From: an uncultured Bifidobacterium sp.
GTDB lineage: Bacteria > Pseudomonadota > Gammaproteobacteria > Burkholderiales > Burkholderiaceae_D
Direction of reading: 5' to 3'
Assembly: GCA_964634245.1 (NCBI GenBank)
Contig: CAZWIE010000002.1
Span: 108,793 to 172,792, forward strand
DNA length: 64,000 nucleotides
Part shown: in pieces, positions 55,744 to 61,135 of the stretch
How the letters are laid out: every line of letters starts with the position of its first letter
How positions within the stretch are numbered: position 1 is the first letter of the stretch
The notes under the pieces: model-generated
The model's input: the letters and a program-made list of their open reading frames with translations, nothing else
Told to the model about the DNA's origin: nothing
The model's database searches: none
Translations under genes and position numbers: made by a program

Positions 55744-56064
55744 ATGCCTGAATTGTGTCGATAACAAGGACTTAATGGAGATGAGCCTTTCAGTATCTGG
55801 TTTGCAAAGCTTCGTGACAATGACGCGAAAGCGAAGATCCGGATGCGCTTGCATCAACTCGCTTCTGGCAATTTCGGTGATTGGGCCTCGGTTGGCGATG
55901 GTGTATTCGAGCTGAGAATTCACTACGGACCAGGCTATCGCATTTATTGCGGACGTCATGGACCGAACTTGATAGTGCTTCTGTGTGGCGGTAACAAGGA
56001 CACGCAGCCAGAAGATATCCGACGAGCAAAATACATGTGGTCCAACTGGAGGGATCAGCAATGA
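55744..56064 (+). pseudogene. Addiction-module killer (RelE/HigB-like, HI1419 type) with in-frame TAA at codon 7
   Basis: Reads MPELCR*QGLNGDEPFSIWFAKLRD...GNFGD...VGDGVFELRIHYGPGYRIY...LLCGGNKDTQ; TAA at 55762-55764. Confidence 0.8.
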
Positions 56065-56384
56065 CCAAAAGCTACAAAGCTTGTGTTTCTCATCATCAGC
56101 GTGAAGTGGAGGAGTTACGCAATGACCGAGAGGAAGCGATTGCCTATCTAAAAGTGGCGATGGAATCGCTAAGCAACCCTGATGATCGTGCAGCAGGACT
56201 ACTTGCTCTTCGCGCGATTGCTGAAGCTTATGGCGGTCTAGGAAAAATCGCGGAAGAGGCAGACATAAGCCGCGAATCCTTGTATCGCGCTTTGTCCGCG
56301 TCCGGGAATCCTACTTTAAAGACCCTGATTGCCGTCTTGAATACCGTTGGCATGAGACTCTCGGTAGAGCCTGCACCACATTGA
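56061..56384 (+). CDS. Addiction-module antidote protein (HTH, HI1420 type)
   Basis: AYL..A...LRAIAEAYGG...IAEEADISRESLYRALS.SGNPTLKTL; ATGA coupling with the toxin. Confidence 0.9.
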   Translation: MTKSYKACVSHHQREVEELRNDREEAIAYLKVAMESLSNPDDRAAGLLALRAIAEAYGGLGKIAEEADISRESLYRALSASGNPTLKTLIAVLNTVGMRLSVEPAPH

Positions 56385-57550: not shown

Positions 57551-58036
57551 ATGCCATCGTTCGACGTCGTGTCGGAAGCCAACCAGGTCGAGGTCAAGAA
57601 TGCGGTCGACCAGGCCAACAAGGAAATCACCACCCGCTTCGACTTCAAGGGCAGCGATGCCCGCGTCGAGCAAAAGGAACGCGAGCTGACCGCTTACGCG
57701 GACAGCGACTTCCAGCTCGGCCAGGTGCGCGATGTGCTGACCACGAAAATGACCAAGCGGAATGTGGATGTGCGTTTCCTCGACCTCGGCAAGATCGAGA
57801 AGATCGGCGGCGACAAGGTCAAGCAAGTGATCAAGGTGAAGAACGGCATCGAGTCCGACGCCGCGAAAAAAATCCAGCGCATCATCAAGGACAGCAAGAT
57901 CAAGGTGCAGGCCAGCATCCAGGGCGACACGCTGCGCGTACAAGGCGCCAAGCGTGACGACCTGCAAGCCACGATCGCGCTGCTGAAAAAAGAAGTCACC
58001 GACCTGCCGCTGGAATTCAACAACTTCCGTGACTGA
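57551..58036 (+). CDS. yajQ: YajQ-family nucleotide / c-di-GMP-binding protein
   Basis: [36 protein letters not shown]. Confidence 0.96.
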
Positions 58037-58124: not shown

Positions 58125-58161
58125 AAACAACAAAGCCACGCAATGCGTGGCTTTGTTGTTT
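58125..58161. terminator. Bidirectional intrinsic terminator
   Basis: Perfect AAACAACAAAGCCACGC-AAT-GCGTGGCTTTGTTGTTT hairpin between convergent yajQ and aroG. Confidence 0.88.
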
Positions 58162-58175
58162 CAGGCGTAGGCAGC

Positions 58176-59237
58176 TTATTCGCTCTTGGTGAGGCGACGC
58201 TGGCGCACGGCTGCCGCGAGGTTCTCGAGTACCTGCAGGCTGCTGTCCCAGTCGATGCAACCATCGGTGATGGACTGGCCATAGGTCAGGTCCTTGCCCG
58301 GCACTAGGTCCTGGCGACCGCCGACCAGATGCGACTCGACCATCACGCCGATGATGCGGTCGTCGCCGCCCGCCACCTGCTCGCCGATGTTGGCGCACAC
58401 CGGCACCTGGTTCTCCGGCTTCTTCGAGCTGTTCGCATGCGATGCATCGATCATCAGCTTCTGAGACAGGCCGTTGGCGGCCAGTGCAATCGCTGCATCT
58501 TCGACGCTGGCGGCGTCATAGTTCGGCGCCTTGCCGCCGCGCAGGATGATGTGGCAATCCTCGTTACCGGCAGTCGACACGATGGCCGAGTGGCCGCCCT
58601 TGGTCACTGACAGGAAGTGGTGCGGCTGCGATGCGGCCTTGATCGCGTCAGCGGCGATCTTGATGTTGCCATCGGTGCCGTTCTTGAAGCCGACCGGGCA
58701 CGACAGGCCCGACGCCAGTTCACGGTGCACTTGCGACTCGGTGGTACGCGCGCCGATCGCGCCCCAGCTGATCAGGTCGGCGATGTATTGCGGGCTGATC
58801 ACGTCGAGGAATTCGGTGCCGGCCGGCAGGCCCAGCTCATTGATGTTCACCAGCAGCTCGCGCGCGATGCGCAGACCGTCGTTGATGCGGAAGCTGCCGT
58901 CGAGATAGGGATCGTTGATCAGGCCCTTCCAGCCGACGGTGGTACGCGGCTTCTCGAAGTAGACGCGCATCACGATCTCGAGATCGTCCTTGAAGCGCTC
59001 GCGCTGCTCGACCAGGCGGCGTGCGTATTCCATGCCGGCCTTGGTGTCGTGGATGGAGCACGGTCCGATGACGACCATGAGGCGATCATCCTGGCCGTGC
59101 AGGATGCGGTGCAACGCAGTACGCGCGTCTGCGGTCACGTTCGCGATCTTGTCCGAGCACGGGAATTCCCGGATAAGGTGCGACGGCGGCGTCAGTTCCT
59201 TCAATTCTCTAATCCTCAGGTCATCAGTACGGGGCAT
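58176..59237 (-). CDS. aroG: 3-deoxy-7-phosphoheptulonate synthase, class I (AroG/F/H type)
   Basis: GPCSIHD, YFEKPRTTVGWKG, IGARTTESQ, GFKNGT, SHANS, ITDGCI; GGAGA RBS before ATG 59237. Confidence 0.96.
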   Translation of the reverse strand: MPRTDDLRIRELKELTPPSHLIREFPCSDKIANVTADARTALHRILHGQDDRLMVVIGPCSIHDTKAGMEYARRLVEQRERFKDDLEIVMRVYFEKPRTTVGWKGLINDPYLDGSFRINDGLRIARELLVNINELGLPAGTEFLDVISPQYIADLISWGAIGARTTESQVHRELASGLSCPVGFKNGTDGNIKIAADAIKAASQPHHFLSVTKGGHSAIVSTAGNEDCHIILRGGKAPNYDAASVEDAAIALAANGLSQKLMIDASHANSSKKPENQVPVCANIGEQVAGGDDRIIGVMVESHLVGGRQDLVPGKDLTYGQSITDGCIDWDSSLQVLENLAAAVRQRRLTKSE

Positions 59238-59298
59238 GGCTTCTCCAGGAATATGCGGTTCGGATTCGATGCTGCTTGTATTCGGATTCGGGCTGCAG

Positions 59299-59329
59299 AA
59301 AAACAAAAACCGCCATTCCTGGCGGTTTT
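59299..59329 (-). terminator. Attenuator terminator upstream of aroG
   Basis: On the minus strand, AAAACCGCCA-GGAA-TGGCGGTTTT followed by TGTTTTT, between the leader ORF and aroG. Confidence 0.8.
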
Positions 59330-59364
59330 CAAAGATTCGGTCTAGGTCCTGTTTCTACGTGAAC

Positions 59365-59436
59365 TTACCGCTTCTCCACCGCCCGGGGGCTGGGGTAGCT
59401 AAAGTAAAAGTGGAAGTAGAACGCACGGACGGACAT
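59365..59436 (-). CDS. Phe/Tyr-rich leader peptide (23 aa) of aroG
   Basis: MSVRAFYFHFYFSYPSPRAVEKR; not in the ORF track; followed by a terminator and containing a potential antiterminator sequence GGCGGT. Confidence 0.78.
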   Translation of the reverse strand: MSVRAFYFHFYFSYPSPRAVEKR

Positions 59437-59521
59437 TGCTGTTTCCAACGCTTCAGGTTCAATACAGATCGATGGTGCTACAAATCACGCGCTTTGGCAA
59501 GCAAGGATAGCAAATCAGCAA

Positions 59522-60982
59522 TCAACCCGTGCCGCCGACGGTCAGTTCTTCGATCCGCAGGGTGGGCTGGCCGACGCCGACCGGCACGCTCTGGCCGTCC
59601 TTGCCGCACACGCCCACGCCCGGGTCGAGCTTCATGTCATTGCCGATCATGGACACACGGTTGAGCACGTCCGGACCATTGCCGATCAGGGTAGCGCCCT
59701 TGACCGGGTAGGCCAGCTTGCCATCCTCGATCATCCAGGCTTCGCTGGCCGAGAACACGAACTTGCCGTTGGTGATGTCGACCTGGCCGCCGCCGAAATT
59801 CACCGCATACAGGCCGTTCTTGACCGAGCGAATGATCTCTTCCGGGTCCTTGTCGCCGGCCAGCATGTAAGTGTTGGTCATGCGCGGCATCGGCAGGTGC
59901 GCATAGGATTCGCGACGGCCGTTGCCGGTCGCCGGCATCTTCATCAGACGCGCGTTCAGCGTGTCCTGAATATAGCCCTTCAGGATGCCGTCTTCGATCA
60001 GGGTGGTGCACTGGGTCGGGTTGCCTTCGTCGTCAACGTTCAGCGAGCCGCGGCGGTCGGCCAGCGTGCCGTCATCCACCACGGTCACGCCCTTGGCAGC
60101 GACACGCTCACCGATGCGGCCAGAGAACGCGCTCGAGCCCTTGCGGTTGAAATCGCCCTCGAGGCCGTGGCCGATCGCTTCGTGCAGCAGCACGCCGGGC
60201 CAGCCCGGGCCGAGCACCACAGTCATCGGGCCGGCCGGGGCCGGACGCGCTTCAAGGTTCACCAGCGCCGCATTGACAGCTTCGGCCGCGTATTTTTCCA
60301 GCAGATCGTCGGTGAAATAGCCGAATTCGTAGCGGCCGCCACCGCCGGCGCTGCCGACTTCGCGGCGGCCATTCTGCTCGGCGATCACGGTCAGCGACAG
60401 ACGTACCAGCGGACGGATGTCGGCGGCGATCACGCCATCGCTGCGCACCACCAGCACCACATCATGTTCGCCCGACAGGCCGGCCATCACCTGCACGATG
60501 CGCGGGTCTTTGGCGCGCGCGATACGCTCGATCTTTTCCAGCAGCCGGACCTTGGAGGTCGCGTCCAGCGACACCAGCGGGTCATGCGGGCGGTACAGCG
60601 CGCGGGCGCTGCCACGCTGCACGCCCTGCGCGACCTTCATGCGGCCCGCGCCCTGGCGCGCGATGGTGCGCGTCGCAGCAGCGGCTTCCAGCAGCGCGCG
60701 CTCGGAAATGTCATCGGAATACGAGAAAGCGGTCTTGTCGCCGGACACGGCCCGCACGCCCACGCCCTGGTCGATCGAGAAGGAGCCGGTCTTGACGATG
60801 CCCTCTTCGAGGCTCCAGCTCTCGCTCTTGGTGAACTGGAAATACAGGTCGGCGTAATCGACCTTGTGCGTGAAGATCGAGCCCAGGGCTTTCAGCAAAT
60901 GGCTTTCGTCCAGGCCATGGGGCGTCAGCAAGACATTGCTGGCGGCGGTCTGGATGGCGATGTTGGGTTCGATCAGCTTCAT
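59522..60982 (-). CDS. tldD: Metalloprotease TldD
   Basis: [54 protein letters not shown]. Confidence 0.96.
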
Positions 60983-61135
60983 GGCGGGGCTCTCAGCGGG
61001 AGTGTTTCCGAAACGGGACACGAGCGTCGATTTTACTGGATCGCCCCCGTCCCTGCTGCCGAGCGGCGTGCCGCCGCCTTGCAGCCAGGGACCAAGACCC
61101 GCCACGGGCGCCGCGCTGCCCGGGCCGGCACACGC

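Follow-up and report, generated by a model that had tools for sequence, protein, structure and literature searches.

Between tldD and aroG, on the minus strand of a 64,000-nucleotide stretch of contig CAZWIE010000002.1 (hereafter the window, meaning this whole stretch at its full length), lies a leader region that very probably acts as a classical ribosome-mediated transcription attenuator, setting the transcription of aroG by the charging of Phe-tRNA and Tyr-tRNA. The product of aroG is 3-deoxy-7-phosphoheptulonate (DAHP) synthase, the entry enzyme of the common aromatic pathway. The minus-strand gene order is yhdP (its C-terminal part), a carbon-nitrogen hydrolase gene, tldD, the leader region and aroG. 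The tldD stop codon is followed by TTGCCA, a spacer of 17 nucleotides (nt), CACCAT, a weak GGA (59446-59444) and the ATG of a short open reading frame (ORF) at 59436; aroG starts with the ATG at 59237, with GGAG ahead of it at 59247-59244. The features concerned are as follows.

59522-60985, minus strand: tldD, the gene upstream of the leader (NCBIfam TldD, 674 bits).
59500-59495, minus strand: promoter-like -35 hexamer TTGCCA, conserved ahead of the leader in relatives.
59477-59472, minus strand: weak promoter-like -10 hexamer CACCAT, 17 nt after the -35 hexamer, as read from the sequence.
59436-59365, minus strand: leader ORF of 23 codons plus TAA, product MSVRAFYFHFYFSYPSPRAVEKR.
59421-59395, minus strand: regulatory codon run UUC UAC UUC CAC UUU UAC UUU AGC UAC, encoding FYFHFYFSY.
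59408-59388, minus strand: region 1, the 5' strand of a proposed 1:2 anti-antiterminator hairpin, overlapping the last Phe/Tyr codons.
59383-59364, minus strand: region 2, GGCGGUGGAGAAGCGGUAAG, the switch strand, located in the 3'-terminal part of the ORF and including its stop codon.
59341-59320, minus strand: region 3, ACCGAAUCUUUGAAAACCGCCA, with region 2 (antiterminator) or region 4 (terminator) as alternative partners.
59330-59299, minus strand: intrinsic terminator (regions 3:4), stem 59330-59320 / 59315-59305, loop GGAA, U-tract to 59299.
58176-59237, minus strand: aroG, DAHP synthase (NCBIfam AroG equivalog NF006723, 586.9 bits against a cutoff of 568).

The leader ORF runs from the ATG at 59436 to the TAA at 59367-59365 and reads ATG TCC GTC CGT GCG TTC TAC TTC CAC TTT TAC TTT AGC TAC CCC AGC CCC CGG GCG GTG GAG AAG CGG TAA. 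Seven of the nine codons in its regulatory run specify Phe or Tyr (four Phe and three Tyr), exactly as had been described in the initial annotation of this DNA, and the frame lies on the minus strand. A stretch of nine codons with at least six Phe or Tyr codons is found a single time when all six frames of the 64-kb window are taken together, and in none of 200 first-order Markov simulations of it. The locus thus presents a short ORF with clustered cognate codons ahead of an amino acid biosynthesis gene.

The initial annotation had proposed that a conserved Phe/Tyr-rich ORF and covarying stems be looked for in related bacteria, and both were found. A scan with the AroG protein, taking one genome per species, yielded 80 loci with 76-94% identity, drawn from Oxalobacteraceae (Noviherbaspirillum, Massilia, Janthinobacterium, Duganella, Collimonas, Herminiimonas and Undibacterium) and Burkholderiaceae (Ralstonia, Cupriavidus, Burkholderia, Paraburkholderia and Caballeronia). 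An ORF of 20-33 codons rich in Phe and Tyr lies upstream of aroG in 79 of the 80 loci; all 79 match a CCGCC...GGCGG-U-tract pattern, and a stricter screen passes every one except L057. Three types of peptide are seen: that of the window, ...F(Y/F)FYFSYSSPxAVEKR; ...FFTxYFYFSNSNPKAVE in Janthinobacterium, Massilia and Duganella; and MSAKFYFYFFW(H/Y)LRPLADREG in Burkholderia, Paraburkholderia, Caballeronia and Ralstonia. Locus L044, from a metagenome-assembled genome of an uncultured Burkholderiaceae bacterium whose AroG is 83% identical, has neither leader ORF nor terminator; its tldD-aroG gap measures only 42 nt, so that the leader must be counted as deleted there, a natural loss of the attenuator. 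In about 51 of the 80 related loci the leader has tldD upstream of it at a distance of no more than about 400 nt, and where other genes take its place the leader and terminator still precede aroG. Because the leader accompanies aroG despite the changed upstream gene, it belongs to aroG.

The range of the element is wider than the initial annotation, which had framed it as betaproteobacterial, allowed for: it is indeed present in Betaproteobacteria, and is found also in Stenotrophomonas and Bradyrhizobium, with Trp codons in 45 of 102 distinct versions. A scan of metagenome contigs with a divergent AroG as query provided 80 further loci with enzymes 63-93% identical to that of the window, and an aromatic leader followed by a terminator was present in about 43 of the 75 whose upstream sequence was long enough. 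The additional peptide types include MITVATSYFWYFSYDSSLAAGGSRSI, MNAARASFYFWYYFPKPLAEEGLRSP and MRCQSPVFFTYFWFSHRTGGREASA. Look-ups of the adjoining AroG proteins assign the new types to Bradyrhizobium, Stenotrophomonas, Rhizobacter, Lautropia and Parasutterella, the first through an exact match in Bradyrhizobium genomes and the other genera through clusters at 90% identity. Nine loci are of the Bradyrhizobium type (L120, L121, L133, L136, L140, L142, L146, L149 and L156); their AroG is about 69% identical to the betaproteobacterial enzyme, and their leader has the same GGCGG / CCGCC / GGCGG switch. Comparison of these sequences suggests either very old descent or a transfer of aroG together with its attenuator. 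Neither a leader ORF nor a terminator is present at the aroG loci of Rhodocyclaceae, Cycloclasticus and Escherichia coli; the E. coli locus provides an internal negative control, in keeping with the regulation of enteric aroG by TyrR. The 90%-identity cluster that contains E. coli AroG also lists several CpxP proteins of 166 amino acids, apparently an artefact of clustering or labelling.

Several properties of the 102 distinct leaders point to translation of the ORF. Their median length is 23 residues, and 97 begin with ATG. Frame 0 contains no internal stop codons and the other two frames contain 58 and 76; aromatic codons number 737 in frame 0 against 352 and 248 in the others. Phe makes up 18% of the residues, Tyr 11%, His 3% and Trp 2%. 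A role for His, which the initial annotation had considered possible, is not borne out, the His position being neither conserved nor enriched. At least one Trp codon is found in each of the 45 Trp-bearing peptides mentioned above. Among Phe codons, UUU accounts for 79% in the leaders (288 of 365) and for 18% in aroG at the same loci (93 of 524), and the genes of the window itself use 5 UUU against 40 UUC. The corresponding shift for Tyr is smaller, with UAU at 47% in the leaders and 33% in aroG. Over-use of rare codons is a hallmark of attenuator leaders. Ten versions of the leader peptide have no entry in a collection of 15 billion proteins and matched no Pfam or NCBIfam model; in practice the leader ORF goes without annotation. 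The longest ORF that includes aroG (P0001) starts at a TTG at 59306, codes for 376 amino acids and crosses the U-tract of the attenuator (59238-59306, minus strand). A public protein 97% identical to AroG is likewise recorded at 376 amino acids, and further records also exceed 353. Some gene calls thus over-extend the start of aroG across the terminator, and the leader region is hidden as a result.

An intrinsic terminator stands between the leader ORF and the structural gene. Its stem is formed by GAAAACCGCCA and UGGCGGUUUUU; the loop GGAA and the 3' arm are followed by GUUUUU, which ends at 59299, 61 nt before the ATG of aroG. The predicted energy is -16.6 kcal/mol (z = -4.6; none of 200 shuffles folds as well), and the site is the sole terminator-like one in the 900-nt region scanned. 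The distance from the leader stop codon to the stem is 34-38 nt, varying with the choice of stem start, and the 36 bp given in the initial annotation, which had recognized this GC-rich terminator with its U-tract, falls within that range. That annotation had also pointed out that GGCGGU (59383-59378), inside the leader ORF, is complementary to ACCGCC (59326-59321) in the 5' arm of the terminator and had taken the pairing for a ready antiterminator. The complementarity is real, but the 6-bp helix is not the whole antiterminator. The structure predicted for the window joins 59383-59367 to 59341-59321 through three helices, namely GGCGGU / ACCGCC (59383-78 with 59326-21), GGAGA / UCUUU (59377-73 with 59335-31) and CGGU / ACCG (59370-67 with 59341-38), and has an energy of -22.1 kcal/mol (z = -2.95), matched by 1 of 200 shuffles. 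It takes 6 of the 11 nt in the 5' arm of the terminator, and the two structures, which share this strand, are therefore mutually exclusive.

The same switch recurs in the relatives. The triple of GGCGG in region 2, CCGCC in region 3 and GGCGG in region 4 is found in 120 of 122 leader-bearing loci. When region 4 is omitted, the minimum-energy fold pairs the core of region 2 with the core of region 3 in all 115 distinct leaders, and over distinct leaders the median energy is -21.7 kcal/mol for the antiterminator against -15.6 kcal/mol for the terminator. The Burkholderia-type antiterminator has the same architecture built from other inner helices (CUGGCGG / CCGCCAG, UCG / CGA and GGG / CCC). The spacing is equally regular. 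From the aromatic run to the start of region 2 the median is 11 nt (range 8-23), and from there to the end of the stop codon 19 nt; the window has 11 and 19. With the first distance, a ribosome that has stalled where the run ends would leave region 2 just beyond its footprint; with the second, region 2 falls within the footprint of a terminating ribosome, as the classical model requires.

Covariation was measured after the three switch segments, each of 11 nt, had been aligned without gaps for 78 distinct sequences. The 2:3 helix scores 0.076 against 0.045 +/- 0.005 in shuffles, a value reached by none of 500, with 37 double-change cells where 17.6 +/- 3.3 are expected; controls in which the partner was slid give 0.007-0.029. 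The 3:4 helix scores 0.146 against 0.075 +/- 0.006, again reached by none of 500 shuffles, with 38 double-change cells and slid controls at 0.007-0.069. Pairs flanking the core vary as pairs: U-A:25 / C-G:8 / A-U:4 and U-A:48 / C-G:4 in the 2:3 helix, and A-U:65 / G-C:13 and A-U:59 / G-C:8 / U-A:4 in the 3:4 helix. The clearest compensatory case is L154, where region 3 reads CCGUC and region 2 GACGG, while region 4 stays GGCGG with a G-U pair. Within the subgroup of the window, 92% of the antiterminator cells pair, compared with 22-53% when the partner is slid, and one inner antiterminator pair varies as A-U:14 / G-U:8 / G-C:5. RNAalifold, applied to a MAFFT alignment, predicts only the invariant outer helix, and the inner helices were specified by hand. 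The parts of the switch exist, are conserved, are mutually exclusive and covary.

Region 1 would act by holding region 2 when no ribosome intervenes. According to predicted folds, an upstream segment sequesters the core of region 2 in 112 of the 115 distinct leaders, with a median energy of -15.3 kcal/mol. This segment is UUUACU..GCU.CCCC.GCC (59408-59388) in the subgroup of the window and ACCGCC immediately before YFYF in the Janthinobacterium type. In Burkholderia it consists of the N-terminal codons AUG UCC GCC AAG, whose UCCGCCA pairs with UGGCGGA, and it is because these codons pair with region 2 that MSAK would be conserved, that is, as RNA structure. Variants of MSAK in L055-L078 (Burkholderia, Paraburkholderia and Caballeronia) preserve the pairing as UUCGCCA, ACCGCCA or UUUGCCA, with CGCCAGC in L061. 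The predicted 1:2 element is plausible, and of all parts of the switch it has the weakest support.

The leader probably has its own promoter, as judged from its sequence, since the promoter-like motif is conserved even where the upstream gene differs. Every group, and nearly every related locus, has TTGCCA (or TTGTCA), 17-18 nt and CACTAT, TATAGT or TATAAA some 25-60 nt ahead of the leader ATG, including the loci in which the upstream gene is other than tldD. The -10 position is occupied in close relatives by CACCAT, CAGTAT or CACTAT. A promoter scan is positive in L017 (TTGCCA-18-TATAGT, 10 of 12 matches) and calls no promoter in L076, where one RNA contig begins 17 nt upstream of the leader ATG, a weak hint. 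The start of transcription in the window would lie at about 59463-59469, and any read-through from tldD would meet the same terminator.

With these parts the attenuator would work as follows. Transcripts would begin some 30 nt ahead of the leader ATG, or enter from tldD, and a ribosome would translate the 23-codon leader. When Phe and Tyr are ample, the ribosome would reach the UAA and mask region 2 (59383-59364), the 3:4 terminator would form (59330-59305 plus the U-tract) and RNA polymerase would halt 61 nt before aroG. When Phe-tRNA or Tyr-tRNA is scarce, the ribosome would stall in the Phe/Tyr run and mask region 1, leaving region 2, about 11 nt downstream, free to pair with region 3 as soon as the latter is made. 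Since the antiterminator (-22 kcal/mol) exceeds the terminator (-17 kcal/mol) in stability, the latter could not form and aroG would be transcribed. Without translation, region 1 would probably sequester region 2 and termination would be the default. The coupling of read-through to tRNA charging is what we infer from this arrangement. The proposal of the initial annotation that a leader-peptide attenuator controls aroG is in this way supported by conservation, geometry, codon usage and covariation.

A number of observations weigh against this reading of the locus. The covariation counts are inflated by shared ancestry. The 1:2 hairpin of the window (-12.8 kcal/mol, z = +0.2) is no better than shuffles, and the position of region 1 differs among lineages. 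The -10 hexamer of the window is weak, and the promoter scan makes no call there. A weak Shine-Dalgarno-like GGA lies within 16 nt of the start in only 20 of the 102 distinct leaders (in the window at -10 to -8), and with such signals so scarce efficient translation of the leader is an assumption. The sequence of the window is matched by metagenome DNA runs only, and the RNA runs of Burkholderia, Bradyrhizobium and Ralstonia consist of assembled contigs, which gave flat contig-mean depths and showed no 3' end at the terminator. Finally, Tyr is reported to be without effect in the analogous attenuator of Corynebacterium glutamicum (PMC11802643), so that sensing of Tyr by the aroG leader is not guaranteed.

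This last point touches the main uncertainty within the attenuator model, which is amino acid specificity. The same attenuator might respond effectively to Phe only, the Tyr codons (and in relatives the Trp codons) contributing little. We regard this narrower version as rather unlikely, though several points favour it: Phe is the commonest leader residue (18% against 11% for Tyr), the strong bias towards rare codons is confined to Phe (79% UUU, compared with a rise in UAU from 33% in aroG to 47%), the enzyme is an AroG equivalog by NCBIfam and E. coli AroG is the Phe-inhibited isoenzyme, and the aroF operon of C. glutamicum, with its Phe-Tyr-Phe leader, is reported to rise in transcription on Phe limitation and to be indifferent to Tyr (PMC11802643). 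Yet Tyr alternates with Phe in alpha-, beta- and gammaproteobacterial versions (FYFYF, YFWYF), which is hard to explain if it is neutral, and the Tyr codons fall where a stalled ribosome would uncover region 2. A different proposal would add to the action in cis a function in trans of the terminated leader RNA or of the peptide. The Sinorhizobium attenuator small RNA rnTrpL and the peptide peTrpL offer a precedent (PMC7968998 and PMC7298713); termination would release a stable RNA of about 165 nt capped by the terminator, and the peptide tail is conserved (AVEKR, or PLADREG in Burkholderia). The pairing of region 2 RNA fully accounts for that tail, however, and no observation requires a function in trans, which we consider improbable.

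Two further explanations would do without leader translation, and neither can be given much credence. Control of termination by an RNA-binding protein or a small ligand, in the manner of TRAP, PyrR or a riboswitch, would suit the weak Shine-Dalgarno sequences, and the strong conservation of the switch core across classes (120 of 122) could in principle reflect a binding site. Against this, no Rfam 15 family reaches its gathering score in the window or in nine diverse relatives, the loop regions vary in sequence and length, the spacing fits ribosome footprints, and the sole conserved feature besides the helices is an in-frame run of aromatic codons biased towards rare codons; such control is very improbable. 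The idea that the hairpin is merely a terminator or insulator of tldD, and the Phe/Tyr-rich ORF an untranslated coincidence, is the least credible of all. Both sequence reading and the terminator scan find no terminator of tldD's own between its end and the leader, and most leaders lack a clear Shine-Dalgarno sequence, as this idea would have it. It does not explain why ORF and terminator remain with aroG where the upstream neighbour is not tldD, why a promoter-like motif separates tldD from the leader, why the Phe/Tyr run occurs nowhere else in the window and never in the simulations, why frame, start codon and stop position are conserved, or why the terminator arm covaries with region 2, which is part of the ORF. 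A role of the hairpin as the terminator of tldD only was rejected, being contradicted by the breaks in tldD-aroG synteny.

Ribosome-mediated attenuation of aroG, then, would be a known mechanism in a new place. The aroG attenuator is an uncatalogued element with a range extending over Alpha-, Beta- and Gammaproteobacteria. We incline, by a narrow balance of judgement, to a broader view as well: one attenuator family, its GGCGG / CCGCC / GGCGG switch almost unvaried, would travel with class I-alpha aroG across these three classes, Trp codons occurring in about 44% of its versions, and would set entry into the shikimate pathway by two or all three aromatic tRNAs at once; it would be the main transcriptional control in lineages without TyrR and TrpR, and a multi-amino-acid aromatic attenuator new to Proteobacteria. 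In E. coli, aromatic biosynthesis is regulated by TyrR and TrpR; both proteins reportedly occur in Gammaproteobacteria only (PMC5343134), which leaves a gap as to the transcriptional control of shikimate flux in Burkholderia, Ralstonia, Cupriavidus and Oxalobacteraceae. The aroG attenuator offers a concrete and testable answer to this gap in non-enteric Proteobacteria, and its carriers include organisms of medical, agricultural and biotechnological importance. For annotation it offers a new gene for a leader peptide and a candidate for a new Rfam family. In metabolic engineering, removal of the attenuator should derepress DAHP synthase in Cupriavidus and Burkholderia strains engineered for aromatic compounds. 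As a case of attenuator evolution, it would illustrate how lineages re-invent region 1 and the inner helices around a switch core that stays the same. The mechanism itself is a textbook one, and the conceptual surprise is modest.

Two other features of this part of the window were recorded. A GC-rich hairpin at 58128-58158, AAAGCCACGC-AAT-GCGTGGCTTT, with A-runs and T-runs flanking it on both strands, sits between the convergent genes aroG (minus strand) and yajQ (plus strand, 57551-58036). It resembles a bidirectional terminator and is the source of sub-threshold Rfam matches to Leu_leader and asX2. Further away, on the plus strand at 55843-56384, two small overlapping ORFs resemble a toxin-antitoxin pair, the first being a Gp49/HigB-like fragment (PF05973, 20 bits, under the cutoff) and the second an addiction-module antidote of the HI1420 type (PF21716, 50 bits).

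Known systems place the aroG leader among relatives in mechanism. Rfam 15 holds no family for it. The initial annotation had supposed that such a leader was undescribed for betaproteobacterial aroG; this holds for the leader peptide, no description of one ahead of aroG in Proteobacteria having been found in full-text literature searches, which did not extend to subscription papers. It does not hold for the terminators. Naville and Gautheret (2010; Genome Biol 11:R97, Tables S0, S1 and S8) reported the aroG family HBG000409 as enriched for 5' premature terminators (22 cases, p = 2.5e-10), with Acidovorax Aave_0852 as an example. They gave the mechanism as '? (21)', and the entry in Table S8 is without the 'Peptide_leader' tag; aroG is absent from their main text, and no leader ORF, antiterminator or amino-acid specificity is described for these cases. 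Their terminators are probably the same element.

The closest parallels in enteric bacteria are pheL-pheA (RF01859, Enterobacteria) and the archetype trpL-trpEDCBA. These systems share with the aroG leader a short ORF with clustered codons for the amino acid of the pathway, followed by an intrinsic terminator, an antiterminator that uses the 5' arm of that terminator, and ribosome stalling as the read-out; Phe codons as the main signal are a further likeness. The differences from pheL-pheA are equally clear. The aroG leader precedes the entry enzyme of the common pathway, whereas pheL precedes the enzyme of the Phe branch; its codons are mixed Phe and Tyr, with Trp in many relatives, whereas those of pheL are Phe only. 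There is no homology of sequence or structure, Phe_leader (RF01859) scoring 20.1 bits in the window (E = 4.3, gathering score 55) over the terminator only (59358-59300). The aroG leader is found in Burkholderiales, Stenotrophomonas and Bradyrhizobium and not in enterics, where aroG is under the control of TyrR (PMC5343134; PMC11802643).

The nearest system in metabolic terms is actinobacterial. In C. glutamicum the aroR leader (Phe-Tyr-Phe) attenuates aroF, and stalling raises transcription under Phe limitation; the account in PMC11802643 credits the aroR-aroF attenuator to Neshat et al. (2014). As in the window, a leader peptide stands ahead of a DAHP synthase gene, with the same logic at the same metabolic step. 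On that account, aroR has three aromatic codons and Tyr is ineffective, whereas the aroG leader has 7-8 such codons, and the GGCGG / CCGCC / GGCGG switch is particular to the proteobacterial element. Compared by description and not by sequence, the actinobacterial aroR-aroF system is presumably an independent invention.

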